From the NCBI GenBank assembly GCA_965223905.1, contig CBDCXV010000011.1, positions 864,001-928,000 on the forward strand: DNA of 64,000 bases, written 5' to 3'. Below the pieces are notes generated by a model that was given only the letters and a program-made list of their open reading frames with translations, had not been told where the DNA came from and did no database searches. This DNA comes from Candidatus Latescibacterota bacterium (GTDB taxonomy: Bacteria > Latescibacterota > UBA2968 > UBA8231). Positions 33,358-55,219 of this stretch are shown piece after piece. Made by a program: the position numbers and the translations under genes. Position 1 is the stretch's first letter; each line of letters opens with the position of its first letter.

Positions 33358-33419
33358 CCTATTTTCCCCTTTGCCCAATCCTTATTTTTGCGCTTACATT
33401 TCGGATCTTGCTTTGCAAT

Positions 33420-35411: not shown

Positions 35412-37139
35412 CTAGAGCCTTTTCACATTTCCCTCGTATACCTTTATGAGCTCAGCGTATTTTTTCCGCAGCTCCTCCAGGTAGTAATTGAAGATACTCC
35501 CCTCCTTCTCTTCCTTCACCGCTCTCACCACCATCCCCTGCACCCACTTGTTCGCTAGAGTGTCGAAACTCTCGGCATATCTGTGGAACACCTTGAAGAT
35601 CGAATATCCCCCCTTTGTCTCCACAGGTCCCTGCAACTCGTTCAGTGGAGCATTCATGGCGGTGTTCATCCACTCCTCTCCGTACAGGGGATGCTGTATA
35701 TCGAAGACCCTGAGGACGCCCTCCTCCACATTGTAGCGGCGAATACTGTACTGGCCTATCAGTTCGGACAGTTCGGCCCCTGTCTCGATCTGCCGGACCA
35801 GATCCCTGGCCTGGTCCGGATCTTCGACCAGCAGCTCCTGGAGGTGGGCCTGGGCGGGAATGCGAAAGCGCCGCTTGTGCGATTCGTAGTAGGCCGCCAG
35901 ATCCTCTTGGGCCACCAGCAACCTCTCTTCCAGGACCAAGTCGCGCAAGTGGACGAGCACGAGGTCTTCCTTCTCGGCTTGCAACAACCGGCGAAAAGCG
36001 TCGGTCTGATCCACCCCGCGTCCACGGCCATCGCATGCCATCACCTCGACAGGCAAAAGAGTTCTTTTTAGTTCGACAATTACTTCTTCCTGATTTATTT
36101 GTCGCAATTGCGCCTTTGCCGGCTCTACAGCCTCTATCACCTCTTCCACGCCCAGCACGACATCGCCGAAGGTATATACTGGCAAACGAAGCCGCTCCTC
36201 GGGTAGGGTACTGAGAGAACGTCCATCCTTCAAAACCTGGACGACCACCTCCATATTTTGTGGATGGGAGCGAAAATCGAGTTCTGTCCTGAGTCGCCTG
36301 AGATACCTCTCGCGCAGTATATCCACTTTGAGATCGTGCAAATAGGTTCTGATTTTGTCCCGCACCTCCTCGATTTTCACCCTGCGGCGCTCCCTGGCCC
36401 TGGCGATGACATGGCCTCCTCTGAGGGGGATGGGTCCGGTTGTTCCACCTTCCGGGAGCACGAAGACCCTGCGCACCACTGCCTTGGGGGCATCGTAGGG
36501 AGAGTAGGTGAAGTGATCGGACTTCCCCGAAGGCAGGCCCATCATGCGATCCACCGCGTGAAGACGAGCAACTTCGGCAAAATCCATTCCATTTTCCAAA
36601 AGATCCACCACCTTTTGGGCGGTCTCCTCATCGGGCACAAAGATTTCCTGGCTCACGACCTGTACCGACCAACCTGCCTGCTGGTAGGCCTGTTCGATCT
36701 CCTCCTCCTCTACGGAGACCTCGTCGTAGACTTCGAGCCGCATCATCTCATCGTGCAGCTTCCTCTTTTTCTCCTCTTCCAGCCGCTCTAAGACCTGTCG
36801 ATCCTCTTCCAAGCCTTGCGCCCGAGCTTCTGCGAGCAGTACCCGGCGATCGATCAAGGTCTGTAGATGGCTCCTGTACTCTTCTGCAGTCCGGGGACTG
36901 GAGGGCCGCCCGGAGACAAAAGCGCGCAGATCACCGGCCGTGATCCGGTCCTCGCCGACCTTGGCCAGGAAGGCGGAATCTTCCAGCGGCTGGGCGCATC
37001 CGCCGAGCAAGATCCCCCCCATCAGGAGCAACCACACAGCGAACCGCCGTCTTCTCAGATCCGGACATAAAGAACCAGGAGCCGGAATCCGCTTCCAGCT
37101 CCTGGTTGAAAAACGCCCCGATGCTGCAATTCTAAGCAC
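35412..37139 (-). CDS. SurA/PrsA-like peptidyl-prolyl isomerase (PpiC domains), probable lipoprotein
   Basis: Lipobox LLGG-C; LAKVGEDRIT, GMDFAEVARLHA, GPVETKGGYSIFKV; two parvulin-like regions. Start uncertain. Confidence 0.8.
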   Translation of the reverse strand: MLRIAASGRFSTRSWKRIPAPGSLCPDLRRRRFAVWLLLMGGILLGGCAQPLEDSAFLAKVGEDRITAGDLRAFVSGRPSSPRTAEEYRSHLQTLIDRRVLLAEARAQGLEEDRQVLERLEEEKKRKLHDEMMRLEVYDEVSVEEEEIEQAYQQAGWSVQVVSQEIFVPDEETAQKVVDLLENGMDFAEVARLHAVDRMMGLPSGKSDHFTYSPYDAPKAVVRRVFVLPEGGTTGPIPLRGGHVIARARERRRVKIEEVRDKIRTYLHDLKVDILRERYLRRLRTELDFRSHPQNMEVVVQVLKDGRSLSTLPEERLRLPVYTFGDVVLGVEEVIEAVEPAKAQLRQINQEEVIVELKRTLLPVEVMACDGRGRGVDQTDAFRRLLQAEKEDLVLVHLRDLVLEERLLVAQEDLAAYYESHKRRFRIPAQAHLQELLVEDPDQARDLVRQIETGAELSELIGQYSIRRYNVEEGVLRVFDIQHPLYGEEWMNTAMNAPLNELQGPVETKGGYSIFKVFHRYAESFDTLANKWVQGMVVRAVKEEKEGSIFNYYLEELRKKYAELIKVYEGNVKRL

Positions 37140-37905
37140 CCGATTGCTCCTCCGCCACCTTTATGACTCCCTGGTCCACCTTGAAGCGGAACTCGACATC
37201 GACGGTATTTTCCGGATTGCCGCTGGCGTCGAAGGAGAGGACAAATTCGTTCATTTTGACCACGATTTCCTGATTTCTCTCGGGCAGAGGATCGAAGACC
37301 AGAAAACCCGTGAACTGGCTTTCTTTGAAGATCGGACGGTGGCGGTGGTACACGGTCTTATAAACTACGCCCATGCGCTCCAGATTGAGTTCCTTTTCAT
37401 TGCCCGAAATGCCCAGCTCGGTCCTGTAGTATTCGCTGAAAGTGTTTCCCCCCAGGGGATTGGTCCCTTTGCGGCCGGGATCGTAATAGCGCAAGTTTTC
37501 CCCCGTATCAGTGATCAGGATTGATTTGGCCGGATCGAACTCGATCTTGGCATAGGTTTTGTTGATCACGGTCACCTGGAACACGGTAAAGCGCGGGGGG
37601 ATATACCCTTTGTCAGGGTCTTTCTTTTCGTGGGTATAGGGATTGACGTGCCGGGCATCGAACAAAGGCGGGAACCGCTGGTTGAGTTCGTCGTCGGTGA
37701 CGTGCTTTATTTTGATGAGGGTCCCTTCCTTGCTGAAGACCACGGAATTATCTTCCAGATCGATGTAGTAATCCCCGCGTCCCTCCGGCAGGAGGGGCTC
37801 CATGTGCATCTGGTATTTCAATTTAGGTGGAATCAGACCAGCACAACCACACGCGAACCCCACAGCCAACAAAACTAAGATCACAACCGCGCGATCTCGT
37901 CTCAT
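37132..37905 (-). CDS. Uncharacterised lipoprotein (paralogue of 50262..51059)
   Basis: Signal peptide ending FACG-C; GYIPPRFTVFQVTVINKT..IEFDP. Confidence 0.75.
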   Translation of the reverse strand: MRRDRAVVILVLLAVGFACGCAGLIPPKLKYQMHMEPLLPEGRGDYYIDLEDNSVVFSKEGTLIKIKHVTDDELNQRFPPLFDARHVNPYTHEKKDPDKGYIPPRFTVFQVTVINKTYAKIEFDPAKSILITDTGENLRYYDPGRKGTNPLGGNTFSEYYRTELGISGNEKELNLERMGVVYKTVYHRHRPIFKESQFTGFLVFDPLPERNQEIVVKMNEFVLSFDASGNPENTVDVEFRFKVDQGVIKVAEEQSGA

Positions 37906-37950
37906 GAACACAGCTCAATCCTCCTGGTCTCGATGGTGAAAAGATATGAT

Positions 37951-38418
37951 TTAGTTGGGATGGGAAAGCTGGACCTGACGAGCAGCTTTTTGCCTTTTGG
38001 TTTTGGCCGCATCTTCGGTCTCCACGTCGATCTTCTCGATCCCCGCCTGGACGGCTATTTCCATCGCATCTATGACGAAGCCGTGGGGCGTCTTGGCATC
38101 GGCAGTGATGATCAGGGTGGCAGAGCCTGTGCGGCTCTTCTCTCCCCGCAGCAACCCGGCCAATTCCCCCATGCCCACCAGGCGACTGTTGACTTCGAGC
38201 TGCCCTTCGGCCGAGATTCTCAGATTCAGTTTTTTCTCCGGCTTGAGCTTGTCGTAGTTCGTCGCCTCCGGCAACTCGATTTTAAGCTGGGTGGCCTTGA
38301 CAAATACCGTGGTCACCATGAAGAATATGAGCAACAGAAACACCGCATCAATCAGCGATGTCAGGTTCAATTCGACCTGGTTGGCTTCTTCGCTCAGCGA
38401 CCTCCTACCTCGGGCCAT
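37951..38418 (-). CDS. exbD: ExbD/TolR-family protein
   Basis: LNLTSLIDAVFLLLIFFMV with the conserved TM Asp; ADAKTPHG. Confidence 0.9.
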   Translation of the reverse strand: MARGRRSLSEEANQVELNLTSLIDAVFLLLIFFMVTTVFVKATQLKIELPEATNYDKLKPEKKLNLRISAEGQLEVNSRLVGMGELAGLLRGEKSRTGSATLIITADAKTPHGFVIDAMEIAVQAGIEKIDVETEDAAKTKRQKAARQVQLSHPN

Positions 38419-38424
38419 AGCGCA

Positions 38425-38847
38425 TCATCCTTCCCCGCCTTTGGCAAAGGCAACTCCTTCAATGCCCTGGCCGCGGGCTATGTCAGCGACCTTTACTACC
38501 TCCTGGTGGGGCACCGTCCGATCCGCTTCCAAGATTATGTTCTTGGAATTGTCGGTCTTCATCACCTGGCGTATCTTTTCAGCCAGCCTCGCCCTTTCGG
38601 TGACCTCGCCGTTGACCTGGATTACCCCACCCGGCTCCATTACGATGTTCATGTCCTTGGTCGCCCTAGATTCACTGCTCCCGCTGCCGGGCAGGTCCAC
38701 GCTAAGCCCTTTGGGGTTGACAAAGGTGGTGGCCACCATGAAGAAGACCAGCAGGAGAAACATGCAGTTGATCAAAGACGTCAGATCCGGATTTACGTTG
38801 GTCTCGAAGCGGGCCTTGGTCCTCGAAGAGCGCCTTCTTCGCGCCAT
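38425..38847 (-). CDS. exbD: ExbD/TolR-family protein with Asn at the TM Asp position
   Basis: DLTSLINCMFLLLVFFMV; ADRTVPHQEVVKVAD. Confidence 0.85.
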   Translation of the reverse strand: MARRRRSSRTKARFETNVNPDLTSLINCMFLLLVFFMVATTFVNPKGLSVDLPGSGSSESRATKDMNIVMEPGGVIQVNGEVTERARLAEKIRQVMKTDNSKNIILEADRTVPHQEVVKVADIARGQGIEGVAFAKGGEG

Positions 38848-38872
38848 TTCGCTCTCCTACGCTTGTCGTTGC

Positions 38873-40051
38873 GGGTGTAGCCGCGTCTTTACGCAGCCAT
38901 CGTGTAGGGTTGAGAGGTAGTCTTTTTAAGGTACCAGTTCCAGAAGGCCTCCCATCGTTTCGATTGCACGTGGACTCGTAAGTTGAGAATCTGCTGTCCG
39001 CCTTCGCGCGTCCAGCGCATGCCGCTTCGTTTGAGTCGATGACCGACCAGGGTCTTGGCGGCCGCCTCTACGGGACCACTGGAGAGGATCAACTCCGAAG
39101 CGTGATAGCCAGCGTAGTCCATTTTATCCCGGTTGGTGCGGAAGTAGCCCAGTTCGGTGGTCGCCTGACGATGGCGTTGTGATCCTTTTGGGAGTTGGGC
39201 GGCGTGATAGAAGTCGAGGATGCGGGTGAAGCCGCTGAACACCCGGTGTTCCTCCACGGTGCGCCAGATCTCGCGCTTGCCGTCTGCCAACACCACCCGG
39301 TGCGCATAGCTACCCTGCTGCAAGGCTCGACCTGTCTGGCTCACCAGGCCCTTGACCAGGGTTTTCATCTTCGCCTCGGGCATGCGCGCGGCATAGCGCT
39401 CGTCGACGCGTTGGAGCTCTTCGCCCTCGGGGTCCAGGGGCGTCAGGTAGGTGGCGACCATGCCCACGCCCGCCTCTTTCCAGGCAGTAGATAGTAGATG
39501 CGCTTTCGGTATCGCGGTCCATCGGTCGTTTGGGCGGTCGTCCGCGCTTGGGCGCCGGTTCCCGCAGGGGCACGGTGACGCCGTCCCAACTGACCACCAG
39601 GGTGTCGCCCTCGACATCCAGCGGCGCCGTCTCTTGCAATGCCAGCTCGAGCTGCTCGGCGTGGTCTTCGGCATACTGCCCTACGGTAGTCAACAGGTGT
39701 TGAATGGCGGTGCGCGAGGGCGGCTCGGGCAGCAATTCACTCAAGCTGTCCTCGACATCGGCCGGGACCATGCCGGCGCCAAGAAACGCGGTCAGGCGCT
39801 CCAACTCCGGGACCATGAATCGCTTGACCATGGCGCAACGCTCGTCCATAGGCACGCGGCTGGGGCCGCCGCGATCGGGCTGATACAGCCGCGGCGGCAT
39901 CACGACCTTGCCCCACAGGGTCATCCACTCCTTGTCGACCACCTGCTTGAATCGATACACCTTACCGTGGTGTACGAAGCGGTTTCCAACGCTTGGCTCA
40001 AGCTTGGGGTCTCTCTTTATTAAAGAAATGCGTAAAATGGAGGCTACACCC
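38873..40051 (-). mobile_element. Decayed ISKra4-like (IS256/Mutator superfamily) insertion sequence, 1179 bp
   Basis: 23-bp imperfect TIRs (GGGTGTAGCC-N5-TTTACGCA) at 38873-38895 and 40029-40051; 8-bp TSD GTCGTTGC at 38865-38872 and 40052-40059. Confidence 0.9.
38889..39960 (-). pseudogene. ISKra4-like transposase, frameshifted and apparently 5'-truncated
   Basis: SWDGV, LADG, LDFYHA, SGPVEAAAK..RLKRSGMRW motifs. Frameshift caused by tandem AGTAGAT at 39486-39499. Confidence 0.85.
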
Positions 40052-40718
40052 GTCGTTGCTGACCGGACTGGAAACGCACTAGCAGGGTATTTGCAAAAGC
40101 GTGACAGTAGAGCTCAACACTCTTGAAGATCTTATCCGCCCGCCTCGACAAATAGCGGTGGAAGAAGATGGTCGGAATTGCCACGATCAGACCGCTGGCC
40201 GTGGTGATGAGGGCTTCCGAGATCCCACTGGCCACCGCCGCAGGGTCCCCGGCACCCGCCCGAGAAATGGCGTCAAAAGCCCGGATCATCCCCATAATGG
40301 TCCCCAGCAAACCCATCAGCGGCGCCAGCACCCCGATCGTTCCCAAGGCATTGAGCCCGCGTCCCAAGTAGTCGACGCCGGATTCTTCAGTAACCAAGAT
40401 CAACTCCTGTCGCATATCCTCGATATCCGTGCGGTTCTCCAGAATCAGGGTATCGTAGCGCTTGAGCAAAGTGGCAAAAATGTAATTGAGCACTCCACTG
40501 CCCTGTCTGAAATGATCCACCGCCCCTTCTTCTCCCTGGGCTTTCAACGTCTCTTCGGCCGCATTCAGCTCCTCTTCCCCTTTTTGTTCGTCGGGTACCC
40601 GGAACAATCCCCAGAGCCTGTCGATGATAATCCCTACAGCTATCAGCGAACAGAGAAACAAGGGCCACATCATGGGGCCTCCCTTAAAGAATGAATCCAC
40701 CAGAAAATTCTGTGCCAT
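40044..40718 (-). CDS. exbB: MotA/TolQ/ExbB proton-channel protein
   Basis: GGPMMWPL, APLMGLLGTIMGMI, GISEALITTASGLIVAIP. Confidence 0.92.
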   Translation of the reverse strand: MAQNFLVDSFFKGGPMMWPLFLCSLIAVGIIIDRLWGLFRVPDEQKGEEELNAAEETLKAQGEEGAVDHFRQGSGVLNYIFATLLKRYDTLILENRTDIEDMRQELILVTEESGVDYLGRGLNALGTIGVLAPLMGLLGTIMGMIRAFDAISRAGAGDPAAVASGISEALITTASGLIVAIPTIFFHRYLSRRADKIFKSVELYCHAFANTLLVRFQSGQQRRV

Positions 40719-40785
40719 GTAATCCCTCCTAGAGGCTAAAATTAATGCGAATCAACTAAGAGATAGAATTCAAATATAGGACTCC

Positions 40786-43700
40786 TTAGAGCCTGTTCTC
40801 CACGATCCAGTCGTGGTGCTGCTTGGCAAAGCTCACGACATCGACATTTTCGGGACTGTCTTTTCCCTTTTCCAGGATTTTCTGGTAGTTCTCTGCTGCC
40901 TCCGACCACCTCCGCATGATTTCGTAGGACAGTCCCAGGTTGCAATAGGCTGCCAGCTCGGTATAAGTCCCCGGGTACTTCTCAACGATCTTCTCGAAGC
41001 CGGCTATGGCTTTGTCGTACTCTTTCGCCTCAAAGAACTTCATCACCTCACCGTAATCCAAACTGGCCTGGATCTCCCTCAGTTCTGCCACCAGGGCTTC
41101 GGCCTTGGGAGCCTCTGGGGAATCGGGGTATTTTTCCACCAAACGATTATAGGCCTCCAGCGCTGGCTCATAGGAGCGGATATTGTAGTAGTAATCGCCA
41201 ACGGAAAACTGCGCCTTTGCTGCGAACTCGCTCTGGGAGTGATACTGCACCACATTTTTCATGGCTGTCACCCCCTCTTCCATCTTTTCCTGCTCAAAAT
41301 AAGCCCACGCCAAGGCGTACTGAGCCGATGCGCTGTAGGTCCCCTGCGGATACTGCCTCAGCGACTCCTCGTAGGCCTTGGCCGCCCGTTCAAAATCGCG
41401 CTCATTGTAGTAGTTCTCACCGATCAAAAACAGCACCTCTTCCTCGTAGATGGAATCGGGATAGCGCTGAGCGAGGACTTCGAAAGCTGCCGCCGCCTTT
41501 TTGAACCAAGTCAGTGCCTGGTAGCTGTGGGCCAGATAGTAGTGGCCGTGGATGCGATTGGGGTCCTGCGGAAACCGCTCGATGTAACCCTCGAAACCCT
41601 TGGCTGATACTTCGTAGTCTTCGGCGTTAAACAGGGCAAAGGAGCTGGAAAAAGCCAGATTGGCACTTTCGCCGGATTGGGGATACCTCTGCAGCCCGGT
41701 GGCAAAGATCGATGCCGCTTCCCGATACTGCTTTTCCTGCAGGAGGGAATTGCCGATGATGGAATAAGCCCGTTCCTTGCGGAAGTACCCGGCTTTGTCG
41801 TCGTCCTCAAATTTCAGGTCGAGCAATTTCTGGGCGTGGTGCATGGCCTGGGCAAAATCCTCCATATCGTAGTATAGTTCGGTCAGCAACATCTGAAAGG
41901 TAGCTGCTTCATGAGGATCGTCGCTGGCGGCGATGAGTTCCTCGTAGTAGCGGGTAGCTTCCTCCTGCAGGTCCAGGCGAATCATGGTGGCTCCCAGCGT
42001 GCGAAAGGCGCTATCCTTGAGGCGGGGCGCTGGATCGAGCTGCAACAATTCCTTCATATCCCTCAGGGTGGCCTCGTAGTTGACTCGAGCGCTAGCCGTA
42101 TCACCGGCCGCATCCTGCTGCTTGGCCACTTCGTAATAGGCGCTGCCGCGGGCCAGGAGTCCACTTTCGGCGATATCCGCCGGCGGCGACTTTTCGAGCG
42201 CCCAGTTGAATTCGCGGATCGATGCCTCGTAGTCGGCCTGAGCAAAATGCACTCTGGCTTTTATATAGTGAAACTGGCTCTGTAGTTCCTTTTCTTTTTT
42301 TTGTCCCAGAGCCTGGCGCAGGACGGCCTCGGCCTGGGCGTAATTTTGTTGGCCTATGTATAATTCGGCCAGGTCGACCTGTAACTGGGTCCACTGGTCA
42401 AAACCCGGTTCCACGGCTTCAAACGAGCCGATCGCCGCTTCTATATTCCCCAACCTCTTGTAAGTGAGCCCCAGCTCCATGTGGGCAACATTGCGCTGGT
42501 CCGAGTCGGGATACTGCTCCAGAAGGGACTGGTAGAGGATATTGGCTTCCTGGTAGTTGCCGATCCCGTACTCGATTCGGGCCACCTGCATCAGGGCAGA
42601 GGGTGCGGCCCCATGTTCCGGGTAGCGCTCCACCAGTTGCTGGTAAAAAGGCTTGGCCTCAGCATTCTGGTCTTTCAGTTGCAGCGAAAAAGCCATGCCG
42701 AAGAGCACATCTGGAACCAAGTCGTTGTCACTGTACTCGTCCAGTAACTGACGGTAGAGGGAAACGGCTTGGTCCAGCGCTGCAACCGATCCTGCGGGAT
42801 CCTGTTTGCGCACCTGCTGTCCGTAGGACTGGTAGGACTGGGCAATGCGGAACAGGGTCTTGTCGCGGGAGAATCCAATCCTGACCGCCACGTCACTATA
42901 GGCGTTGAGATAGATCCGATACTCCTCCGCCGCCTTATCGTACTTTTCTTCATCGTAGAGCAAACGGGCCACAGTGAGCTGGGTCCGGGCCTGGAAGAGC
43001 TTGTCGTCTTCGACCTTTTCAATAGCGTTCTTGTAGGCGGCAATAGCAGCCGCAGTACCGCGTTGCTGGTGGATTAGCTCGGCTCCGCGGATATAGGCGT
43101 TCTGCACCAGGACGGGCTCGGCCGCGTACTCCTCGATCACCACAGAATAGGCCGCGAGCGCCTTTTCTATCTCGCCCTTCCCGGCGTAGATATCCCCCTT
43201 CTTCAACTGCGCCTTGGCCACCAGCTCGCGGGTAGTCTCCTTGACCACCCCTTTGAGCTTGAGGGTGCTCATCTCGATGAGCTCCTCTTCAGACATCTGG
43301 GAGAAGTCATAGCGGGCGATCAGGCGATCGAGAAAATTCAGGGCCATGTCGTACTGATCGAGCCGCTCGTAGCAATCGGCGATCTGAAAGATGGACCGGT
43401 CTGCGCTCGACCCTCTGGGCGCCAGGGTCAGCACCTGCTCGAAGTTCTCGATGGCCACCGGGTAGCGCTCCAGCTCAAAGTAGGACCAGGCCATATCGTA
43501 GTAGACCGCGGTCTCGTACACGTTGTTGGGGAAATCGCGCAGCAGTTTTTTTCCTTCCTGAATGACCTGCAGGTAGTCCTTCAACTGGTAGTTGGTCGTC
43601 AATGTCTGGTACTGAGCCATCACCCGGGTGCGCTCTTCGATATTTTCGTCTTCGATGATCTGGTGGAAATACTCCAGGCTGTGGTTGAGATCCTCCAGGG

Positions 43701-44061: not shown

Positions 44062-44092
44062 TTTTTGGTCTCCGTCACCTGATGGGTGGTAC

Positions 44093-47002: not shown

Positions 47003-47073
47003 AATCGACATCCTCACCATGTGCAGTCTGATTAAACCAACTTTTTCTAGTGCGGCAAAGCTCTCCCTGCGGA

Positions 47074-47958
47074 TCAATGGGCGCGGTATGCGAATCCTGA
47101 CTGGTGAATGCCCCCCAGCCCGGTCGAGTGCAGGGGATAAGTATAGGCGTAGTCAAAATACCACAGTTTCCACCTGAACCCCAGACCCAGATCCACTTCC
47201 TTGGCCTCCCGGTCTGAGGAGAGCAAACGGCCACCCAGCCGCAAGGCAACCCCGCGCGCCCGGGAAGAAAGGGGGGTCTCATAACCGGCCCGCACCTCGG
47301 TGCGCCCCCCGCGCCGTTCGATATCGACCAGGACCTGCCGTCGATCCAGATTGACGCTGGCAGCCAGGACCACCCCTCTCGGGGTTTTGCCCGCCGGATG
47401 TCCGCTGGCGGCGATATTGGCGCGGTTGATATTGGTCAACATTAACCCCAGGCGCATATAGACCAGACGGTGAATCCAGCCCACTTTGTAGATCCCTCCC
47501 AGATCCGCGCTCCAGGCCCGATTCGACAATCCGCTGGTTTTCCAGCCGCTGTAGCGCAGGCTACTGCCCAAGGCCAAGCGCTGGTGCAAGACCCTTCCAT
47601 ACCCCACAATCCCCACCTGTTCGCGCCAATCTTCAACCCCCAGGCTCGACCACCCCAGCTGCAGGCTTCCACCGCCCATCGGCAGCACTGCTCCCAGTAC
47701 ATTCAGGCTCGGGCTTTCGTCCAATCCGGAATAGAGCTGAGCGTGAGCCGTGCCCACCCGGTATTTCTGGGCCCAGGCATTGGCGGCTGGATTGAACCAG
47801 ATGGCCTCCGCATCCACCCCGGCAGTAAATGCCGCCCCCATGCCCGAACTCCGGGCTCCCCCACCGGTGATTTCGAAAGCCGGATACGCCGGCCAGGCCA
47901 GGGCCATCAGCAACCAGCTAATACGCCACAACCAGTGTACCTGTGCGGCTGGTAGCAT
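47074..47958 (-). CDS. PorV/PorQ-like (FadL-fold) outer-membrane barrel
   Basis: GARSSGMGAAFTA...AIWFNPA N-terminal motif; C-terminal FDYAYTYP..LGGIH. Confidence 0.7.
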   Translation of the reverse strand: MLPAAQVHWLWRISWLLMALAWPAYPAFEITGGGARSSGMGAAFTAGVDAEAIWFNPAANAWAQKYRVGTAHAQLYSGLDESPSLNVLGAVLPMGGGSLQLGWSSLGVEDWREQVGIVGYGRVLHQRLALGSSLRYSGWKTSGLSNRAWSADLGGIYKVGWIHRLVYMRLGLMLTNINRANIAASGHPAGKTPRGVVLAASVNLDRRQVLVDIERRGGRTEVRAGYETPLSSRARGVALRLGGRLLSSDREAKEVDLGLGFRWKLWYFDYAYTYPLHSTGLGGIHQSGFAYRAH

Positions 47959-49597
47959 CGGCCCCGGCTCCCACCCGGATTTCGTAAAGGTAGAGCCCCG
48001 GATTCACGATCCGTCCATCCCGGTCGCGTCCGTCCCACTCAAAGTGATAGGCGCGGGCGCTCCCTTCCTGGCCCAAATGCCGCACCCGCTCGCCATCGAG
48101 GGTAAAGAGCCGCAGCACGACCCCTGTAACCTCCCGGATATTACCCACCACAAAGCGAAAATCCATGGTTTCTCGTTCCAGAGGAGAAAAAGGCCTCGGC
48201 TCGACCTTTACTTCGCTCAGCAGGCTAGGCGGTTCCCCCACAGCCAGGACGACCGAAGCCGCACCGGGTGCTTCCCGGCTGTTTTGCCAGTTCACGTACC
48301 CGTCCTGTCCCTCCTGTTCGCGGCAGCCTACCTGTAGTTCCACCCGGGTCCGATCTTGTAAAAACAGCGCCCTGCCGAAAATTTCCAGCCTGCCCGAATC
48401 CACGATGCGCTCGGCGGCGGCCAATTCGAAGAAGGTGCGCTCCTCGGTGGGGATACTGCGCCAGCGAAAACCCTGTTCCAGATTCTCGTCGTAGACCAGA
48501 ATCCTGCCGTTGTAGCGCAATTCGTCGACGGTCAGGGCTATGCCCTCCAGCCGCATCAGGTCAATGCCGTAATTCCCAGGTTCAAGTTCGAGCGCAGCCG
48601 TGTAAGTCAGGGTTGTCGGCTCCCCTTTTTGCGCTGTTTCCGGCGCCACTTCCCCCAGGATCTGCCGGGCTACCAGCACGGGATCGTAGTCCACCTCCAG
48701 GCGCTGGAGGAACGGCGTGTTGAAGGGCGCCCCGGTCTGCAATATTGCCTGGTACTGAAAGCGCCGGACCGGCTCGGCTCCGGCAAAGAGCTGCTCCCCC
48801 TCTCTATAGCTTTCCAGTTCCTCCCACTCCGGCAGATCGCGCTCTTCCTCCGCGCCCCGGAACTGCATTTGCACCTGGGTCTGAGGAGGGGTCTGGACCT
48901 GCCAGCGGATCCGCCCCGGGTTCACCGACTCGGGGCTGGTCCATGCGCCCGCGATCCGCCCTTTCTCGGCAAATCCCGTCCCGAACACCTCGATCTCCCC
49001 CAGGGCCACCCAGTTGCTGCGATCCTGGCGAATCAAGGTCAGGCGCACAAACCGTCCCAGCCGCGAAAGGGATTTACCTGTTGCGTCCAGGACCGACCAG
49101 GTCGAGTCGGCGCGGGTGTCTATATCCAGTAGGAAATTCTCCGCCTGTTCGGCAAGGAGCCGCCAGGTGTTTGGACTGTTCTGGGTCGCCGTCTCGATCC
49201 GGTAGCCGCGCACAAAGTACTCGGTCTGCAGTTGCGCCGACTCCCCGGCCAGAATCCGCACCCGGGTGATGGCTCTGTCCAGGCCCAGGTCCACAGTGAA
49301 GTTTCGCCCGAACACGTGGGGTGTGCCCGAAAGCCACTCGCTCCGTCCTATTTCGATGCTGCCGTCGGTCAACGGCACCTCCCTGTCCAACTCATTCACT
49401 GTCAAACGTCCCAGCGCCAGATTTTGGTCCCCGTCCAGGAAATTTAGGATCACCAGACTATCGGGATGCACCTGCACGTTCTCCAGATCGGCCAGTCCAA
49501 AGTCCTCTACCTTCCCGGCGGTCCAGCGGCGCAATTCTCCTTCAACGGGACTCCATTTCCCCCCCAGAATCATCAGACAGAGACCGATCAAGAGCAC
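47918..49597 (-). CDS. Secreted protein with a discoidin-like region and a C-terminal FlgD-Ig (T9SS-CTD-like) domain
   Basis: FTVDLG..RFVRL..LGEIEVFG; PRPFSP...LFTLDGERVR..WDGRDRDGRIVNPGLYLYEI. Confidence 0.75.
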   Translation of the reverse strand: MLLIGLCLMILGGKWSPVEGELRRWTAGKVEDFGLADLENVQVHPDSLVILNFLDGDQNLALGRLTVNELDREVPLTDGSIEIGRSEWLSGTPHVFGRNFTVDLGLDRAITRVRILAGESAQLQTEYFVRGYRIETATQNSPNTWRLLAEQAENFLLDIDTRADSTWSVLDATGKSLSRLGRFVRLTLIRQDRSNWVALGEIEVFGTGFAEKGRIAGAWTSPESVNPGRIRWQVQTPPQTQVQMQFRGAEEERDLPEWEELESYREGEQLFAGAEPVRRFQYQAILQTGAPFNTPFLQRLEVDYDPVLVARQILGEVAPETAQKGEPTTLTYTAALELEPGNYGIDLMRLEGIALTVDELRYNGRILVYDENLEQGFRWRSIPTEERTFFELAAAERIVDSGRLEIFGRALFLQDRTRVELQVGCREQEGQDGYVNWQNSREAPGAASVVLAVGEPPSLLSEVKVEPRPFSPLERETMDFRFVVGNIREVTGVVLRLFTLDGERVRHLGQEGSARAYHFEWDGRDRDGRIVNPGLYLYEIRVGAGADATSRTGTLVVAY

Positions 49598-49598
49598 C

Positions 49599-50261
49599 TT
49601 AAAACAGGATCTTCTGGGTCAGGTAGGTAACCACGGCTACGGCCATGGCCTCTTCCAGTTCTTTGGAGTTGAAAATCATCTCCATGCCCACCTGCAGCGG
49701 TTGCCTTTTCAAGCTCTTGCCACTTTTGAGGTCCTTGATTTCAACCTCTACCTCTATTTTGTTGGTCTTGCGCGAAAACTTCTTCTCGACCCTCTGACTT
49801 CGGAGAAGGGCCTTGCCGGTGATTTCCAGCTGCGCCTCTGCGGACCCGGCCAGGACCAGTTCAAATGGATTGTCGACCAGTCGCACATCCTCCAGGTCCT
49901 CTACCTTGTCCAACGCCACCAAGACCCGCACCTGCTCGCGGCGCAATTCGCGCAATACCGATCCGGACAGATCTTCGATGCGCGAGGGGCGGGAGATCGT
50001 GACCAGCTCGTTGCCCACCTGGGCCAGGGTATTGGTAACAGCCGTACCCGCGTTGGGATCGCCGCCCCCTATCGACGCCCGCGGATCAATGACGCTGGCC
50101 TTGCTCTCTACCTGGAACTCCTTGATGTAGATCTTGATGGGCTCTTTCGGGGGGTTGGCGAGGCTGGTACCCTTCAGCATTTCGTACTTCAGGCCCCCAC
50201 AACCGCCTAGGACGAGCCCTGCCAGCAGCCCCAGCCCCAGGCTCTTCAGCGCCCTTTCCAT
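49599..50261 (-). CDS. Uncharacterised lipoprotein
   Basis: Lipobox VLGG-C; tightly coupled to both neighbours. Confidence 0.75.
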   Translation of the reverse strand: MERALKSLGLGLLAGLVLGGCGGLKYEMLKGTSLANPPKEPIKIYIKEFQVESKASVIDPRASIGGGDPNAGTAVTNTLAQVGNELVTISRPSRIEDLSGSVLRELRREQVRVLVALDKVEDLEDVRLVDNPFELVLAGSAEAQLEITGKALLRSQRVEKKFSRKTNKIEVEVEIKDLKSGKSLKRQPLQVGMEMIFNSKELEEAMAVAVVTYLTQKILF

Positions 50262-51059
50262 CTACTCTTTCTCCATTGGCTTCACACCTTGGACCACATT
50301 GAAGTGGAAGGCCAGATCGGTCCATTCCACGGGATTGCCATACCCCACCTCATACCGGTCGAAGGCCAGGATGAAGTTGTTGATCTCCAGGGTAAAGGAC
50401 TTGCTCTCCGGCGGCAGCGGCGGAAAGGTCAGCTTGCCGGAGTACTTGGAGCCCTTGCGCACTGGTTTTTCCCGGAGGTATTCGCTCTTGCGCCAGATAT
50501 CGTTTCTGTCGTATTGAGCGTGGTAGTTGACCGCGCCGGCGTGGCTGCCCCACTTCAGGTAGCTGTAGTCGAAAAAATGGGGATAATCCTGCCATAACCC
50601 CTCGTTTCCCGGCCCCTTTCCCCCGGAACTGGGGACCGAACCTGTTTTTTGTCGGCAGTAGTAGAAGTTGCCATTGTCCAGGCGCAGAATCGCCTGGGTC
50701 GGATCCAGTTCAACCCGCTCCCGGGTGCGATTGATCAGGGTTATATCAAAAACCGTCCACAGCGGCGGGGCGTAGCCCAACTCGGGGTGGGTCCAGCCGG
50801 TCAGGGTATAGGGGCTGTAGCGCGGATCGTACTCGGCGTCCAGCATCTCGTCGTTGTAAAACTTGACCTTGACCTGTACTCCTTCCAGGCTCCACACCAG
50901 CGAACTGTCGACTGGATCGACATAGTAGGCATCAGACTCGGACAGAACCGGATCAGCCTCGACGTAGTACTGCAAACCGGGCGGAAAGGTCAGACTGCAT
51001 CCCCCCAGCCACAGCAGCGAGACGACGCATCCGAGCATCGATGTTCTGGTCCATTCCAT
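50262..51059 (-). CDS. Uncharacterised lipoprotein (paralogue of 37132..37905)
   Basis: ATG at 51059; lipobox WLGG-C; GYAPPLWTVFDITLINRT..VELDP. Confidence 0.75.
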   Translation of the reverse strand: MEWTRTSMLGCVVSLLWLGGCSLTFPPGLQYYVEADPVLSESDAYYVDPVDSSLVWSLEGVQVKVKFYNDEMLDAEYDPRYSPYTLTGWTHPELGYAPPLWTVFDITLINRTRERVELDPTQAILRLDNGNFYYCRQKTGSVPSSGGKGPGNEGLWQDYPHFFDYSYLKWGSHAGAVNYHAQYDRNDIWRKSEYLREKPVRKGSKYSGKLTFPPLPPESKSFTLEINNFILAFDRYEVGYGNPVEWTDLAFHFNVVQGVKPMEKE

Positions 51060-51066
51060 ACGCTTT

Positions 51067-54006
51067 TCAAAAAGGAGAGATGATTTCCACGAAAAGGACA
51101 TTCTGTTCCAGGTTCCGCTCTTCAAAGAGAGTGTAGTCCCGCCGGGTGCGCTGATAACCCATGAAAATGGTGGAAGCGCCCACCCCGAAGTAATCGGAGG
51201 TGATCCGCAACATGGCGGTATAGTCTCTCTGGCCGAAGGTGCGGTCTTTTTCGACGCGATCGTGGCGCTTGTAGGGCACTCCGGGAAAGCCCTGGGCCCC
51301 AACCAGGAAGTGGGTATTGCCGGTCAGTTTGTACTCCGCCATCACAATCGGAATGTACTCGGACGAGGAGAGTCGGGCATCCTCCTCGGTGTCCACGTCC
51401 TCGTACAACAGGCGGTGCTTGAATTTGGGACGCACCGTCAGGGCGCCCCTGATCCAGGTGTACTCGATTTTGTTGATCAGGGTGAAGCGCGTGCGGATAT
51501 CGTCTGGCTGCAGCAGGCCGCTGCCGTCTTCCAAGGCGATTTCGGCCTGGCTGTTGCGCACCCACAGCAGCGAATTGTTCAGATTTACATTGCGAAAACC
51601 CAGGTACTGCAAATCTACGTAGAAGGTGTTGACCCAGCTGTCGCGCATCAACAGGGGATCCGGAGTGGCAGGCCGGAAAAATCCGGGGTGCTCCGGCGGG
51701 CCATCCGGCTTGTTCAGCCAAGGTATGATATCCGCGTCGTCGGGCGGCAGGTGGAAGATATAGTTGTGGTCGGCGATATCGTCTTCGACTTTCTTCACAT
51801 CGTAGTTGATCTGCAACTCCCCCACCCCTCGCTGCTGAATTTCATAGGCATAGCGCAGGTATACGGCTTCGGCTTTGCCGCCGGCGGCGATTTCGCGGTT
51901 GGTGTACGCGCCCGCGGAAAGATTCGTCCCCAGGCCACCCAGACGGGAAACAGACAGAAAGAAGTGGCGCCCTTTCTGGTCGCGTCGATAGGGATAATCC
52001 GCCAGGTCGTCGTTTTCGCGGAAGTCCGGCAACCCATTGTTGTTGAAGTCGATGCCGTAGACAAACTCCGGGGGGTCGGCTGCGAACATCAAAAAGGGCT
52101 CTTCCCAATCCAGTTTGAAGTTCTCGTTCCGGTCCAGATCCGGAATGTTATCGAAGTTTGCGTCCAGTCCCGGGTACACGCTGGAGTTGCTCCAACCCGG
52201 GTACAAAACCCCTGAAGTGGGCACCTCGCTCAGGTCATCGTCCGGCCACTGATCATCGTCGTCGTTATCTTCCACCAAGTAGTATTCCTGGGTGCGCGAC
52301 TCCACCCGCTGCCCCGGGACAGGCTGCCGGTCTACGTGGAAGGCCATACCGCCACGGCGGCTGTCGTATCCGCCGCTGAAATCGGGCTCAAGGCGGAAAA
52401 TTTCGCCGCCGAGGTGAACACCCCAGAATAGTTCTTTGAGGCCTTTGAGCCAATAAGCCCAGGCTCTCTGGGTGCTGCGCTGGCCCTCGTTGTCGCCCAC
52501 TGGGAACATGTAGTTTTGCAGGTTGTGCGCCACCTCGCCTTCCAGACCTACGCCCACCAGATCGGCCTTCCAGTTGACCGAAGCCAGACTCTGTCCAGTG
52601 GGCATGCCGTAGTCGAAGGAAACCACGCGGCGGTTTCCCCCGGTAGCGGACCGCCCCTCTGATCTGAGGACGGTGTAATAAGGCTCTTCGGCTTCCCTGT
52701 CGATGTCCCACTTGAACGGGCGCTTGGTTCCCGCTTCGGTGCCCACAAAAGAGGCCGGCCACTCCCATTCCTCGGGCGCAATATTGCCGTTCCGATCAAT
52801 CTTGGGAAAATCGTGCTTCTGGCGCACCCCGATGCGGTAGTCGTCGGCCACCTCGGCGGTGAACCGGGCCGAGCGCACGGTGACATCGTCGGGCAGGCCG
52901 AACTCGTAGATCACGGTCTCCTTGCCCATGGCCTCGCGGCTCCCGTCGGCCTGCGACACCCCCCCCGCGACCACGGGCCGCAGCGAGGCATCGAAGTCGG
53001 GATCATCGGGGTCGCTGCTGAGCCGCACAGGCTCCCCGTCCCGTTCGCCCTCGACCACGATATCCAGGCCGTAGACCTTGCCGTTGAACTGTTCCTCCAG
53101 GGGAGAATCGTCGCCGATAAAGACCCGGATGACTCCGGGACCCAGCATAGCGTAGGGCAGGTCGCCCTTGAGGGCGCTGCTGTGGGGAGAAGACGGAAAA
53201 GACATGAGCTGGTTGAGGAAGGTGGAGCCCATACTGGCGTAGTCGCCTACTTGGTGCTGCCAGTGGAGGCCATAGACCAACACGGGTGCCAGATTGAAAG
53301 TCTCCCCCTGTGGTATGCCCCAGAAGGAAAACATCCCGTTCCGCCCACCGCGGCTATAGAACACGGTGGCGCGGTCCCGCCCGTTACCCGCGTCGAGATC
53401 CAGGCGGGCAATCCGCATGTGCCCCTGAGCCAGGGTCAGGGGCGTGAGGTAGGTGCGCACGTCCCGGCCGACCGTGGCGGACCAGTGCAGCCCCTTGTAG
53501 CTGTAGTGACCCAAGTGAAGGCTGCCCCCTCTCGGCGAGCCCCATCCCGCCCCCGATTTGTGGTCGATGAAACTGTACCCGGAATTATCCTTGCCGCTGC
53601 GCGCCTCCACGATTGAAAAAGACCGCTGGTAGTGCGGCCCCATGTAGTTGCCCAGACGGTCCCAGCGTATGTTTCTGTGCCACCAGGGCCGACCGGTATC
53701 CACGCCCCAGGGTATAGTTTCGCGCTGCCAGAGGATGTACCTTTCCTCGGCGTGATTCTGGTAGGGGACGTTGTCTCCAGTGACTAGAAAGAGCCGGTTT
53801 GGCCCTCGGCCGTAGCGGTCGAGCGGACCCCTGATGAAGGGGGGTCGCTGCTGCCACTCTGGCACCAGCCCGTAGGAAGGGTGGGGGCCGGCCGATTCTG
53901 GATGGCGCTGTGCCTCTACCCGGACGATAAGGCCGGCGCAGAGCAAGCAGAGGAGCAACGGCCATGCCCCGGGGCTATGACCTTTGCTTTTGGGCAGGTA
54001 GGACAT
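51067..54006 (-). CDS. Uncharacterised large exported protein, putative outer-membrane protein (paralogue A)
   Basis: Signal peptide ending VEA-Q; shares PPEF[VI]YG[IL]DFNNNG..DFREND...DYPYRRD with 44093..47002; terminal LFVEIISPF. Confidence 0.7.
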   Translation of the reverse strand: MSYLPKSKGHSPGAWPLLLCLLCAGLIVRVEAQRHPESAGPHPSYGLVPEWQQRPPFIRGPLDRYGRGPNRLFLVTGDNVPYQNHAEERYILWQRETIPWGVDTGRPWWHRNIRWDRLGNYMGPHYQRSFSIVEARSGKDNSGYSFIDHKSGAGWGSPRGGSLHLGHYSYKGLHWSATVGRDVRTYLTPLTLAQGHMRIARLDLDAGNGRDRATVFYSRGGRNGMFSFWGIPQGETFNLAPVLVYGLHWQHQVGDYASMGSTFLNQLMSFPSSPHSSALKGDLPYAMLGPGVIRVFIGDDSPLEEQFNGKVYGLDIVVEGERDGEPVRLSSDPDDPDFDASLRPVVAGGVSQADGSREAMGKETVIYEFGLPDDVTVRSARFTAEVADDYRIGVRQKHDFPKIDRNGNIAPEEWEWPASFVGTEAGTKRPFKWDIDREAEEPYYTVLRSEGRSATGGNRRVVSFDYGMPTGQSLASVNWKADLVGVGLEGEVAHNLQNYMFPVGDNEGQRSTQRAWAYWLKGLKELFWGVHLGGEIFRLEPDFSGGYDSRRGGMAFHVDRQPVPGQRVESRTQEYYLVEDNDDDDQWPDDDLSEVPTSGVLYPGWSNSSVYPGLDANFDNIPDLDRNENFKLDWEEPFLMFAADPPEFVYGIDFNNNGLPDFRENDDLADYPYRRDQKGRHFFLSVSRLGGLGTNLSAGAYTNREIAAGGKAEAVYLRYAYEIQQRGVGELQINYDVKKVEDDIADHNYIFHLPPDDADIIPWLNKPDGPPEHPGFFRPATPDPLLMRDSWVNTFYVDLQYLGFRNVNLNNSLLWVRNSQAEIALEDGSGLLQPDDIRTRFTLINKIEYTWIRGALTVRPKFKHRLLYEDVDTEEDARLSSSEYIPIVMAEYKLTGNTHFLVGAQGFPGVPYKRHDRVEKDRTFGQRDYTAMLRITSDYFGVGASTIFMGYQRTRRDYTLFEERNLEQNVLFVEIISPF

Positions 54007-54055
54007 CCTGACTCCCTCGTTTCCCACAATCCGACAGGGTACTTTAAGCATAAAA

Positions 54056-54086
54056 TTGGGGGACGGGCGCAGTGCCCGCCCCCCAA
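54056..54086 (-). terminator. Intrinsic terminator-like hairpin after the CBM9-like gene
   Basis: Minus strand TTGGGGGGCGGGC-ACTGC-GCCCGTCCCCCAA (13-bp stem with one G-U pair), followed by TTTTA. Confidence 0.6.
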
Positions 54087-54138
54087 AAGAGTCGAGATAC
54101 TTCAACCAGGTTGTACTTTAGGGAAACACCCTCTTTTC

Positions 54139-55086
54139 CTACTGGTTAAAAGTAGACTTGATCCGACCCCAGGAGTCCTTTTCGACCGCCGTCGCCGAAC
54201 CGGCCGGCGTGTCGGTAAAGACGATGGTCGTGTAATAGGACTGGTCGCCACCCGGAGCGCCATAGCACACCAGCTGACCGCCGTATCCATCGTTGTTGTC
54301 CGGATCGAGGATGAGCCAGTGGAGACCCATTTCCGTACCCGCCTCGGGAATGGCCGGCAGGTCGAATCTCAGCAGGGTCTCCCAGGCGACCTTGCCCTCA
54401 ATGACGTAGTCGGCCTCGCCGCCGAACTCGTCTCCGGCATCCCGGAAGCTGTATTCAAAGCCCTCTACCAGGTCGGGATCATGAGTTTGAGTGCGCAACC
54501 CTTCGACCAGGTATTCCCAGGTGATGTTCACCGCGCTGGCATCCATGGGAGCAGCCACGAAATTGATGATGTTCATGGTCGTGTGCTGGCCATCCGGACC
54601 ATAGGGCGCCTTGGAATTGGTCAGGTCCAGGTAGATGCAGGTGCTGTCGCGCTCCCACCAGCAGAATGGATTTCCTTCGTTTTCTACATCGCGGACATTG
54701 TCGCGCACGTGCGCAATGTACCACCACGCATCCTCGTCCCAGGCGTGCCAGCTGTTACTCCAGGAATCGGCATCCGTGCGGGCTACGCTGGCCTCTTCGC
54801 CTTCGCTCTGGTTGAGCTGGTTGCCGCTTACCAGGCTGATGCCGTTTTCCTGGTCGGCCCAGCCGAACTCGGCTCCTTCCGCATTAATCGAGGAGGGCGA
54901 GCAGGGAAGCTCCAGGGAACCGGCCCATTCTTCATCGCCCCTTACGCCATCCAGGGTGGGTGGGCTGGTGAATTGAGGCAACTCGAAAACGCGAATCAGA
55001 CTCGGATCGGCATTCTGTGCTTCGCCCGTGGTCGGAATGCCCAGGAGCGCTACGAGCGGCAGGAGCAGGAAGAGTGCTGTCTTCAT
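54139..55086 (-). CDS. Secreted CBM9/DOMON-like protein with a TAVEKDSWGRIK tail
   Basis: Signal peptide; PPTLDG...EW, AWDEDAWWYIAHVRD, WWERDST, YVIEGKVAW, ILDPD. Confidence 0.75.
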   Translation of the reverse strand: MKTALFLLLPLVALLGIPTTGEAQNADPSLIRVFELPQFTSPPTLDGVRGDEEWAGSLELPCSPSSINAEGAEFGWADQENGISLVSGNQLNQSEGEEASVARTDADSWSNSWHAWDEDAWWYIAHVRDNVRDVENEGNPFCWWERDSTCIYLDLTNSKAPYGPDGQHTTMNIINFVAAPMDASAVNITWEYLVEGLRTQTHDPDLVEGFEYSFRDAGDEFGGEADYVIEGKVAWETLLRFDLPAIPEAGTEMGLHWLILDPDNNDGYGGQLVCYGAPGGDQSYYTTIVFTDTPAGSATAVEKDSWGRIKSTFNQ

Positions 55087-55219
55087 TGTTTCCTCCATGA
55101 AGGAATGGCTTCGGGTTTGTTATTCGGAAAGGGAATGCGCCGCGATCTCTTCTGACAATGCCTCCTTTCTTCATAAATATGAGCTAACATGAACTCTACG
55201 ATTGGCGGGATCAATGGGC

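Follow-up and report, generated by a model that had tools for sequence, protein, structure and literature searches.

Predicted plug-less barrels joined to an ExbB/ExbD motor in Candidatus Latescibacterota: a candidate cluster for energised capture and uptake at the cell surface

A stretch of 64,000 nucleotides from a Candidatus Latescibacterota genome (assembly GCA_965223905.1, contig CBDCXV010000011.1, positions 864,001 to 928,000), called the window below, contains closely spaced minus-strand genes spanning 35412-55098, which encode two big putative outer-membrane barrels, an ExbB/ExbD motor, a giant tetratricopeptide repeat (TPR) protein and a set of exported proteins. We tentatively read this cluster, at somewhat less than even confidence, as a lineage-specific system, driven by the proton motive force (pmf), for capturing polymers at the cell surface and importing their fragments, that is, a counterpart of a polysaccharide utilization locus (PUL) plus TonB made from different parts. 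Uptake is preferred because the genome has many barrel cassettes with binding proteins, few motors with TonB-like parts, and syntenic OPT-like permeases. Searches of the literature on Latescibacterota type IX secretion, or on their outer membrane and polysaccharide, found no publication on the cluster. The genes are listed below in the order of the minus strand, with coordinates in the window.

54139-55098, minus strand: CBM9-like exported protein, 319 aa (Pfam CBM9_1, 5.4e-11)
51067-54006, minus strand: big barrel A; the reading frame is open to 54105, with a probable start Met at 54006 followed by a signal peptide
50262-51059, minus strand: lipoprotein of the LIPO13 family, copy 1 (lipobox LGGC)
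49599-50261, minus strand: lipoprotein 2, 220 aa (lipobox LGGC)
47918-49597, minus strand: discoidin-like protein with a type IX secretion system-type (T9SS-type) C-terminal domain, called the CTD protein here (sub-threshold family matches)
47074-47958, minus strand: PorV/PorQ-like small outer-membrane barrel (NF033709 PorV_fam, 4.7e-10, sub-threshold)
44093-47002, minus strand: big barrel B, 969 aa including the signal peptide; the reading frame extends to 47077, with a probable start at 47002
40786-44061, minus strand: TPR protein, 1091 aa, with an N-terminal membrane helix and matches to many TPR families
40044-40718, minus strand: ExbB/TolQ-type proton channel (Pfam MotA_ExbB, 6.3e-30)
38848-40043, strand not assigned: ISKra4-like insertion remnant in two broken reading frames (NF033572, 5.4e-28, partial model)
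38425-38847, minus strand: ExbD1 (Pfam ExbD, 4.6e-27)
37951-38418, minus strand: ExbD2 (Pfam ExbD, 3.5e-30)
37132-37911, minus strand: lipoprotein of the LIPO13 family, copy 2, the third lipoprotein (lipobox Cys)
35412-37139, minus strand: SurA/PrsA-like peptidyl-prolyl isomerase (Rotamase_2, 1.2e-15; lipobox LGGC)

An earlier note on this DNA, made from the letters alone, had listed 13 of these genes, and all were verified on the minus strand at the places it gave; the ISKra4-like insertion between exbB and exbD1 and the lipobox of the isomerase are additions to its list. The conserved unit also exceeds the coordinates given there, reaching downstream to a gene at 31255-33252 and upstream to a divergent pair at 55475-56524 and 56659-57825. 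The same note had recognised no TonB, Tol-Pal, TonB-dependent receptor or Gld/SprA parts in the cluster, which is borne out by family scans, where Plug, TonB_dep_Rec, TonB_C, TolB, Pal and the SprA/Gld families have zero matches among the cluster genes. The host genome (G000) amounts to 7.9 Mb in 11 contigs, of which C1, C2, C6, C10 and C11 are cited below. Among the sequencing runs containing the stretch are some labelled sponge metagenome or marine metagenome.

Both large proteins are predicted from modelling and structural comparison to be plug-less outer-membrane beta-barrels of ~950 aa. They are paralogous (37% identical over ~990 residues), and neither matches a Pfam or NCBIfam family above cut-off. 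The AlphaFold2 model of barrel B, calculated from a 45-sequence alignment that includes barrel A, is almost all beta, with a mean pLDDT of 76 and a pTM of 0.77. In a Foldseek search against the PDB, the first match was Deinococcus SlpA (8ae1_A; E 1.4e-10, TM 0.18), followed by MtrB, LptD and TonB-dependent receptors. Two runs of VIA-align returned outer-membrane barrels as all leading matches of barrel B; porins aligned with Z 13-14 over ~220-240 residues, and the SlpA entries (8ae1, 8agd and 7zgx) gave the longest alignments, 413-424 residues, with Z 11.1-12.6. The model, Foldseek and VIA-align thus support the earlier prediction that the two large proteins are barrels.

The closest titled public relative of barrel B is 66% identical and comes from a Candidatus Latescibacterota genome. 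Wherever homologs of the barrel or the third lipoprotein bear a name, it is 'hypothetical protein', and most come from Latescibacteria bins; the 30 nearest Atlas clusters of the barrel are all unnamed. The family profile recovers, at E up to 1e-3, 1204 representative clusters out of 1.84 billion, and it has 0 matches among PDB sequences. Conservation in the family is highest in an acidic segment (residues 567-654 of barrel B) where Asp, Asn and Gly are invariant and which by eye resembles calcium-binding loops; searched alone against Pfam, this insert gives only an EF-hand match at a non-significant E of 1.4. The alignment also contains a conserved, aromatic-rich N-terminal segment.

That this is a misread locus for Tol-Pal or for an ordinary TonB-dependent receptor is hardly credible. 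ExbB and ExbD are indeed present, but neither large protein matches Plug (PF07715) at E up to 0.01 or TonB_dep_Rec (PF00593), and the model is larger than a 22-strand barrel, whereas a receptor encoded at 22272-24476 of the window, used as a positive comparison, scores 7.8e-17 for Plug and 1.2e-30 for TonB_dep_Rec. Moreover, TolA, TolB and Pal are missing from the cluster, and the genome has its canonical exbB-exbD-exbD-tonB set elsewhere, at C1:234847-237005. This identity was rejected on the lack of any Plug, TonB_dep_Rec, TolA, TolB or Pal match. The comparison receptor, an ordinary TonB-dependent receptor that also carries a CarboxypepD_reg domain, lies outside the operon.

The likeness to SlpA of Deinococcus radiodurans raises a structural reading, in which the SlpA-like barrels would serve as a scaffold or tether of the envelope and the TolQ/TolR-like stator would form, with a YbgF-like TPR protein, a Tol-like system. 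SlpA is the best Foldseek match, gives the longest structural alignments and is of similar size, and barrel B has a weak match to the Pfam family SlpA_C (PF21620; 1e-4, 21.3 bits against a cut-off of 35, over 83 residues), a label that some barrel homologs bear in precomputed form. The best NCBIfam matches of ExbB and the two ExbD proteins are TolQ and TolR, all below their cut-offs (93.7 against 221, 55.9 against 127.3 and 58.4 against 127.3 bits), the TPR protein matches YbgF/CpoB repeats, and no TolB was found over cut-off in the host genome. The TM-scores to SlpA are, however, only 0.17-0.18, the SlpA_C match is sub-threshold, the gene context is another one, the invariant acidic insert is specific to the present family, and the family scan found no SLH or other wall-binding domain in the barrels. 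In addition, a housekeeping tether would not usually come with 34 barrels and five or six motor modules in one genome, the barrels are absent from 62 of the 168 genomes of the phylum, and their tight linkage to surface proteins with binding domains and to permeases fits poorly with such a role. The structural reading is therefore considered improbable.

Conservation of gene order, for which the earlier note had called, was found in other genomes of the phylum. An identical order of 15 genes, including the 13 from the CBM9-like gene to the isomerase gene, is present in the genomes G144, G104, G102 and G109, and in G161 up to the contig edge. These five belong to the same family-level group as the host and are different genera-level genomes, G109 having only 43% G+C. 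The locus is far more than a chance cluster, as other genomes of the phylum arrange these genes in the same way. The orthologous regions were annotated with our own open reading frame (ORF) caller, based on third-position G+C bias and length (a length-only rule was used for the low-GC G109), and with BLAST against the window proteins. CBM9-like orthologs with 48-53% identity occupy the same position in all five genomes, and orthologs of lipoprotein 2 (48-60% identity) likewise keep their place in related genomes. The core of the locus is also kept by distant families: CTD, three barrels, TPR, ExbB, ExbD, ExbD and LIPO13 in G031; DUF4159, CTD, two barrels, TPR, ExbB, ExbD and LIPO13 in G106; CTD, a PorV-like gene and a barrel in G007; and DUF4159, a barrel and two tail-tagged CBM9-like genes in G008. 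Across the phylum, the big barrel is present in 106/168 genomes and LIPO13 in 104/168; the 168 genomes are related and are not independent samples. Both occupy the same families and are absent from the families f2, f3, f4 and f14.

The window cluster is one of many in its own genome, where 34 full-length barrel genes are distributed over 21 loci. At least one gene of the CTD-protein family (47 members) is found in 20 of these loci, a CBM9-like tail gene in 15, a SurA-like isomerase gene in 11 and, within ~16 kb, a DUF6785 membrane protein gene in 13. A TPR protein of ~1080-1112 aa with ExbB/ExbD, LIPO13 and DUF4159 neighbours accompanies only five of the 21. The zones within 10 kb of barrel loci make up 6.8% of the genome, and according to tblastn they contain 11/15 isomerase paralogs, 9/10 LIPO13 genes, 5/6 long TPR proteins, 5/7 DUF4159 genes and 8/45 DUF6785 genes.

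The proteins that accompany the barrels appear suited to binding at the surface. All family matches of the CTD protein in the window are sub-threshold, namely F5_F8_type_C_2 (3.8e-4), FlgD_ig (0.002; 18.5 bits against 27) and the PorU C-terminal region (5.9e-6). Ten CTD proteins of the cassettes were scanned: eight match CHU_C and eight FlgD_ig, at E up to 0.001 and several above the 27-bit cut-off, six match F5/8 type C, and an enzyme family was found in none of the ten. Above-threshold matches to CHU_C, the type B CTD, fall within 10 kb of a barrel locus in 37 of 46 cases, as against only 8 of 49 for the PorU-type C-terminal domain. The small barrel next to the CTD gene scores 39.6 bits against NF033709 (cut-off 90), and its paralogs at C2:294808 and C2:361691 lie in related loci.

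These features recall the handling of T9SS cargo. In Flavobacterium, type B CTD cargo is described as held by PorP/SprF (PMC12618676; PMC9143113), and in the present genome genes for CHU_C-type CTD proteins likewise lie directly beside genes for outer-membrane barrels. Here, however, the linked barrels are three times larger, have no PorP_SprF match, and are attached to a motor, a TPR protein and lipoproteins. The PorP_SprF model (PF11751) matched neither the big barrels, the small barrel nor anything else in the genome, and its control matched nowhere. A complex prediction for barrel B (residues 66-969) with the CTD (466-559) scored 0.00 against a mark of 0.32, without controls, and speaks neither for nor against binding.

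A further resemblance to the T9SS is that a PorV/PorQ-like barrel gene follows the CTD gene in the window while SprA, PorU and PorV are encoded in the genome. The earlier note had advised looking for a canonical T9SS elsewhere, and these three proteins were found outside the cluster, above their cut-offs: SprA (2065 aa) at C10:1146986-1153183, and PorU followed by PorV on C2, the best PorV of the genome scoring 218.9 bits. The motor side differs from the known T9SS, in that GldK and GldM were not detected in the host genome with the models used. Two GldM models found nothing there, and TIGR03517 was over its cut-off in 0/168 genomes and also in none of the control genomes, so its sensitivity is uncertain. 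Because the controls never exceeded the cut-off, the GldM result is to be read as 'not found with these models' and not as absence. No GldK was over cut-off in the host (the best scored 92.5 against 350; GldL and GldN were not searched), its GldK-like matches being generic sulfatase-modifying-enzyme domains, and no gld-like genes flank sprA or porUV. A literature search on type IX secretion with GldM in Fibrobacterota and Gemmatimonadota found no paper. The T9SS motor of the phylum was thus not recognised with the models used, for which it may be too divergent.

The last point bears on the proposal of the earlier note that the cluster is an undescribed secretion or surface-assembly machine. 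In this proposal, the big barrels would translocate or mount proteins with a CTD and/or with the WGxIK tail described below, the PorV/PorQ-like barrel would be a shuttle, and the motor made of ExbB/ExbD, TPR protein and lipoproteins would take the role of GldLM/PorLM. The tail is carried by the CBM9-like protein, whose C terminus (encoded at 54139-54190) is TAVEKDSWGRIKSTFNQ, ending in SWGRIKSTFNQ. The pattern TAVExx(S/T)W(G/A)RIKAxFxx ends 17 of the 18 CBM9-like family members near barrels, and a genome-wide six-frame search found (T/S)AVExx(S/T)W(G/A)RIKAxFxx at the end of 85 open frames of >=150 aa, compared with 3 for the reversed motif. Frames with this tail often stand in tandem arrays (C1:172-175k, C6:2.5-6.7k, C11:86-89k and C2:52-60k); some carry PD40/TolB-like propeller repeats, and one carries an FGE-sulfatase-like domain.

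In favour of secretion, the tail behaves like a sorting or docking tag, and a locus without big barrels (C2:356-369k) joins tail proteins to LIPO13, a PorV-like barrel, a 1081-aa TPR protein, ExbB, ExbD and DUF4159. Secretion would also agree with the tight linkage of type-B-like CTD genes to barrel genes, which parallels the type B CTD and PorP/SprF of Flavobacterium (PMC12618676; PMC9143113), and with the failure to find GldM (in the host with two models, and in the phylum with TIGR03517) or an above-threshold GldK as parts of a T9SS motor. Against it stands the distribution of SprA, which is present in 167/168 genomes compared with 106 for the barrels and 104 for LIPO13, so that the module is not a general T9SS motor; its candidacy as the universal T9SS motor of the phylum was ruled out on the same counts. 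Furthermore, only 24 of the 85 tail frames are within 20 kb of a barrel locus, the motor is found in only five of the 21 barrel loci, syntenic OPT-like importers are ill-fitting for an exporter, and the Gld models are perhaps too narrow, their controls having matched in no genome. ExbB/ExbD-type stators are not known to drive protein export, which also counts against secretion.

A self-contained secretion system is disfavoured because the T9SS outer-membrane set is near-universal while the module is not, and because most cassettes are motorless. The CTD protein is more likely ordinary T9SS cargo, since SprA, PorU and PorV are encoded elsewhere and SprA is far more widespread than the barrels. 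What stands of the proposal is a set of undescribed, conserved and motor-linked barrels; secretion itself is not its best-supported part, and we regard it as unlikely but possible. The energised importer, which the earlier note had named as its alternative, is favoured instead because the T9SS lies elsewhere, 34 barrels in 21 loci have five motors, the OPT-like permeases are syntenic, and TonB_C and DUF4159 parts occur. A specific version, in which the barrels, the PorV/PorQ-like protein, LIPO13, the TPR protein and ExbB/ExbD1-ExbD2 would form a new pmf-driven pathway for export and display, with (T/S)AVExxSWGRIK as its tag on 85 proteins and with GldLM/PorLM work for T9SS cargo as a further duty, seems rather improbable.

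In the membrane helix of ExbD1, an Asn is found where ExbD2 has Asp; the motif is LINCM in the window, G144 and G104 and LINCI in G109. The other ExbD copies examined, including those of paralogous and distant motor loci, keep the Asp in LIDxV; the copy at C10:2119255 stands outside this residue comparison, as it was cut in the wrong frame. The Agl-Glt system of Myxococcus is described as comprising an AglR pentamer with an AglQ/AglS heterodimer, the TPR protein GltD, TonB-CTD-like domains in GltG and GltJ, and GltABH barrels (PMC11761067). Because ExbD1 has Asn where ExbD2 has Asp, the two ExbD chains of the stator probably pair as a heterodimer within a ring of ExbB, as described for AglQ/AglS in AglR (PMC11761067). 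A frameshifted remnant of an ISKra4-type transposase, of which the genome has at least 5 other copies at 87-95% identity, occupies the 1196 nt from exbB to exbD1. The corresponding gap is only 19-28 nt in orthologous loci, the insertion thus being specific to the host genome. In a second DNA data set (X3), the ISKra4-like element is covered at ~15x the depth of its flanks, and contigs stop at the repeat, none bridging it. In the closest paralogous motor locus, a 491-aa frame between two exbD genes (C2:283271-284746) has a weak GldK/FGE-sulfatase-like match (2.0e-5); this frame overlaps exbD and may be wrong.

The comparison with Agl-Glt drawn in the earlier note holds in outline, as the cluster combines a single TolQ-like subunit with two different TolR-like ones and also has a TPR protein of ~1100 aa as well as outer-membrane barrels. 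It can be extended to TPR proteins of ~1100-1200 aa on both sides, to TonB-CTD-like partners (TonB_C-bearing proteins occur in paralogous loci) and to barrels with lipoproteins and a surface adhesin (PMC11761067), the discoidin proteins here being adhesin-like. The cluster could accordingly be read as a machine for adhesin trafficking or gliding, in which the stator would push outer-membrane barrel complexes bearing adhesins, but we find this quite improbable. The likeness is one of parts list only, and the barrels here have ~950 aa, are SlpA-like and come in multi-copy cassettes, whereas GltA/B/H are small and porin-like. The family scans of the cluster showed no cytoplasmic platform genes (MglA-, GltI- or AglZ-like), and the host belongs to a different phylum without known gliding. 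A single motility apparatus would hardly come as many paralogous cassettes, and OPT-like permeases are ill-fitting for one.

The remaining periplasmic parts follow the barrels and the motor through the genome. The TPR protein matches YbgF, BamD and PorW-like repeats, and six TPR genes of its ~1091-aa type are present, five of them within 10 kb of big barrels. The two LIPO13 copies are paralogous (30% identity), their lipobox Cys is invariant in 26/26 aligned relatives, and many relatives in other genomes lie within open frames of 410-470 aa. LIPO13 paralogs in the motor loci at C1:1488435 and C10:2094763 have a C-terminal TonB_C domain (8.1e-6 and 0.0028, respectively). Copy 2 was modelled at pLDDT 88 as a beta-sandwich with a helical insert, for which the PDB gave no match at E up to 1e-3, the best being YjhA, MPT63 and ApaG-like sandwiches; since these are non-significant, the fold search gives no function for LIPO13. 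Lipoprotein 2 has no paralog in the genome, tblastn finding only itself. The isomerase has 15 paralogs, most of them near big-barrel loci as counted above.

The neighbours on both sides of the cluster extend this picture toward the inner membrane.

31255-33252, minus strand: OPT-like multipass membrane protein, the best-conserved neighbour, without a Pfam family
33408-35357, plus strand: DUF6785/DUF6784 multipass membrane protein, OPT-related (Pfam 1e-111 and 1.4e-21)
55475-56524, plus strand: divergent neighbour of 349 aa, no family found
56659-57825, plus strand: DUF4159 membrane protein with a TonB-like layout as judged by eye (DUF4159, 3.1e-6)

The OPT-like protein is 77-82% identical in G144, G104 and G109, where its gene directly follows the isomerase gene. 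It shows a weak likeness to DUF6785, and the named Atlas clusters closest to it are those called 'peptide transporter' (score 0.97, with OPT on 33% and 15% of members), after which DUF6785 clusters come. The DUF6785 protein itself has 0 matches among the sequences of solved structures, and G144, G102 (with four copies) and G109 have DUF6785 genes downstream of the operon. About 45 DUF6785-like, OPT-related genes are present in the host genome, two of them beside the canonical exbB-exbD-exbD-tonB operon on C1. On the other side, orthologs of the 349-aa divergent protein adjoin the operon in G144, G104, G161 and G109, and the DUF4159 gene has a 57% identical ortholog at the same place in G161 and paralogs inside four other loci with TPR and motor genes. 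In DUF4159 proteins, a membrane helix leads through a spacer rich in Pro, Lys and Arg to the DUF4159 head, a layout that by eye looks TonB-like. The membrane helix of TonB bears a His, and a His is found in the membrane helix of four of the five readable DUF4159 proteins, that of the window included.

Further out, the OPT-like gene is followed by genes for a 1639-aa protein with a single FtsX-like permease domain (25605-30524) and for a PhyH-family dioxygenase (30236-31123); at the position of the former, G109 and G104 encode proteins of 1532 and 1539 aa. Beyond the DUF4159 gene lies a CRTAC1/ASPIC-UnbV FG-GAP protein (57822-59558), of whose kind the genome has ~50 copies, often paired with TPR proteins; 25 of the 50 are within 20 kb of barrel loci.

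RNA contigs bear on the expression of the operon. Contigs at 95-100% likeness to pieces of most operon genes come from three RNA libraries of a single study, which are recorded as sponge metatranscriptomes, and 20-22 of 30 bins are covered to some extent in each run. The longest contigs, 595-920 nt, lie on the CBM9-like gene, and others cross the junctions of barrel B with the TPR gene, of lipoprotein 2 with the CTD gene, and of ExbD2 with lipoprotein 3. One RNA-library contig (X10, 53773-54433) crosses the following element between the CBM9-like gene and barrel A.

54056-54086, minus strand: strong stem-loop followed by a T-rich tail (13 base pairs, of which 10 are G-C)

The stem-loop is a possible attenuator. 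Terminator-like sites across the region are not above shuffles (27 found compared with 20.8 expected, sd 4.4), nor is the promoter and terminator scan of the region overall, and no Rfam family was found anywhere in the window. The RNA contigs cannot rank genes, and operon parts without a contig are uninformative.

Collectively, these data can be combined into a working model of energised capture and uptake. The CTD protein would be exported by the canonical T9SS of the genome and then retained at the surface by the PorV/PorQ-like barrel, a big barrel or both, in the way PorP/SprF retains type B cargo in Bacteroidota, while the CBM9-like protein would dock via its tail. The big barrels would be the outer-membrane conduits, energised by the ExbB/ExbD1-ExbD2 stator, and the energy could be carried to them by the TPR scaffold and by TonB-like transducers, for which the DUF4159 protein and LIPO13, TonB_C-bearing in paralogous loci, are candidates. 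The isomerase may act as a chaperone for the giant barrels or for imported chains, and the OPT-like permeases would carry the products through the inner membrane. The genome's remaining 20 barrel loci would then be substrate-specific cassettes sharing five or six motor modules.

This model resembles the ExbB-ExbD-TonB and SusC-SusD systems of PULs in that an ExbB/ExbD stator adjoins large outer-membrane barrels, TonB_C occurs in paralogous modules, many cassettes combine surface binding proteins with nearby permeases, and few motor sets are available for many barrels. It differs from them in that the barrels match neither Plug nor TonB_dep_Rec, SusD is missing, and the binding proteins are not lipoproteins but T9SS-type CTD proteins and tail-tagged CBM9-like proteins. 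The cluster also adds the 1091-aa TPR protein, LIPO13 and DUF4159, and no fixed enzymes or regulators were seen.

Several points weigh against energised uptake. The barrel family has no characterised member and a transport function is shown for no part of the cluster, nor is any enzyme (glycoside hydrolase or peptidase) fixed in the cassettes. DUF6785 is only moderately enriched near barrels, its 8 of 45 genes within 10 kb comparing with ~3 expected. Since 27 Plug-domain receptors and the canonical exbB-exbD-exbD-tonB set are already present in the host genome, the cell has no need of a further import system. Unlike TonB with its membrane helix, LIPO13 is a lipoprotein, and the copies in the window lack TonB_C. 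The TonB-like view of DUF4159 proceeds from a layout seen by eye. The counts of loci and families were obtained with a simple ORF caller of our own and BLAST clustering. Finally, the RNA contigs give only an indication of transcription, because the libraries may contain DNA and there is no silent control.

Latescibacterota are uncultured and widespread bacteria, and some of the features described here are new whatever the function of the cluster: type-B-like CTD cargo whose genes are closely coupled to those of a new barrel family, a new C-terminal tag shared by 85 proteins, and a T9SS outer-membrane set without detectable GldM or GldK, as judged with the models used. If energised capture and uptake is true, the phylum would have its own answer to SusC/SusD plus TonB, in which plug-less, SlpA-like barrels of ~950 aa would carry binding proteins delivered by the T9SS and CBM9-like proteins docked by their tails, with ExbBD driving the barrels via a giant TPR scaffold. 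The cluster would then represent a new class of energised outer-membrane machine, would give a role to families without known function (the barrels, LIPO13, DUF4159 and DUF6785), and would provide a genomic marker for substrate-specific loci in the phylum.

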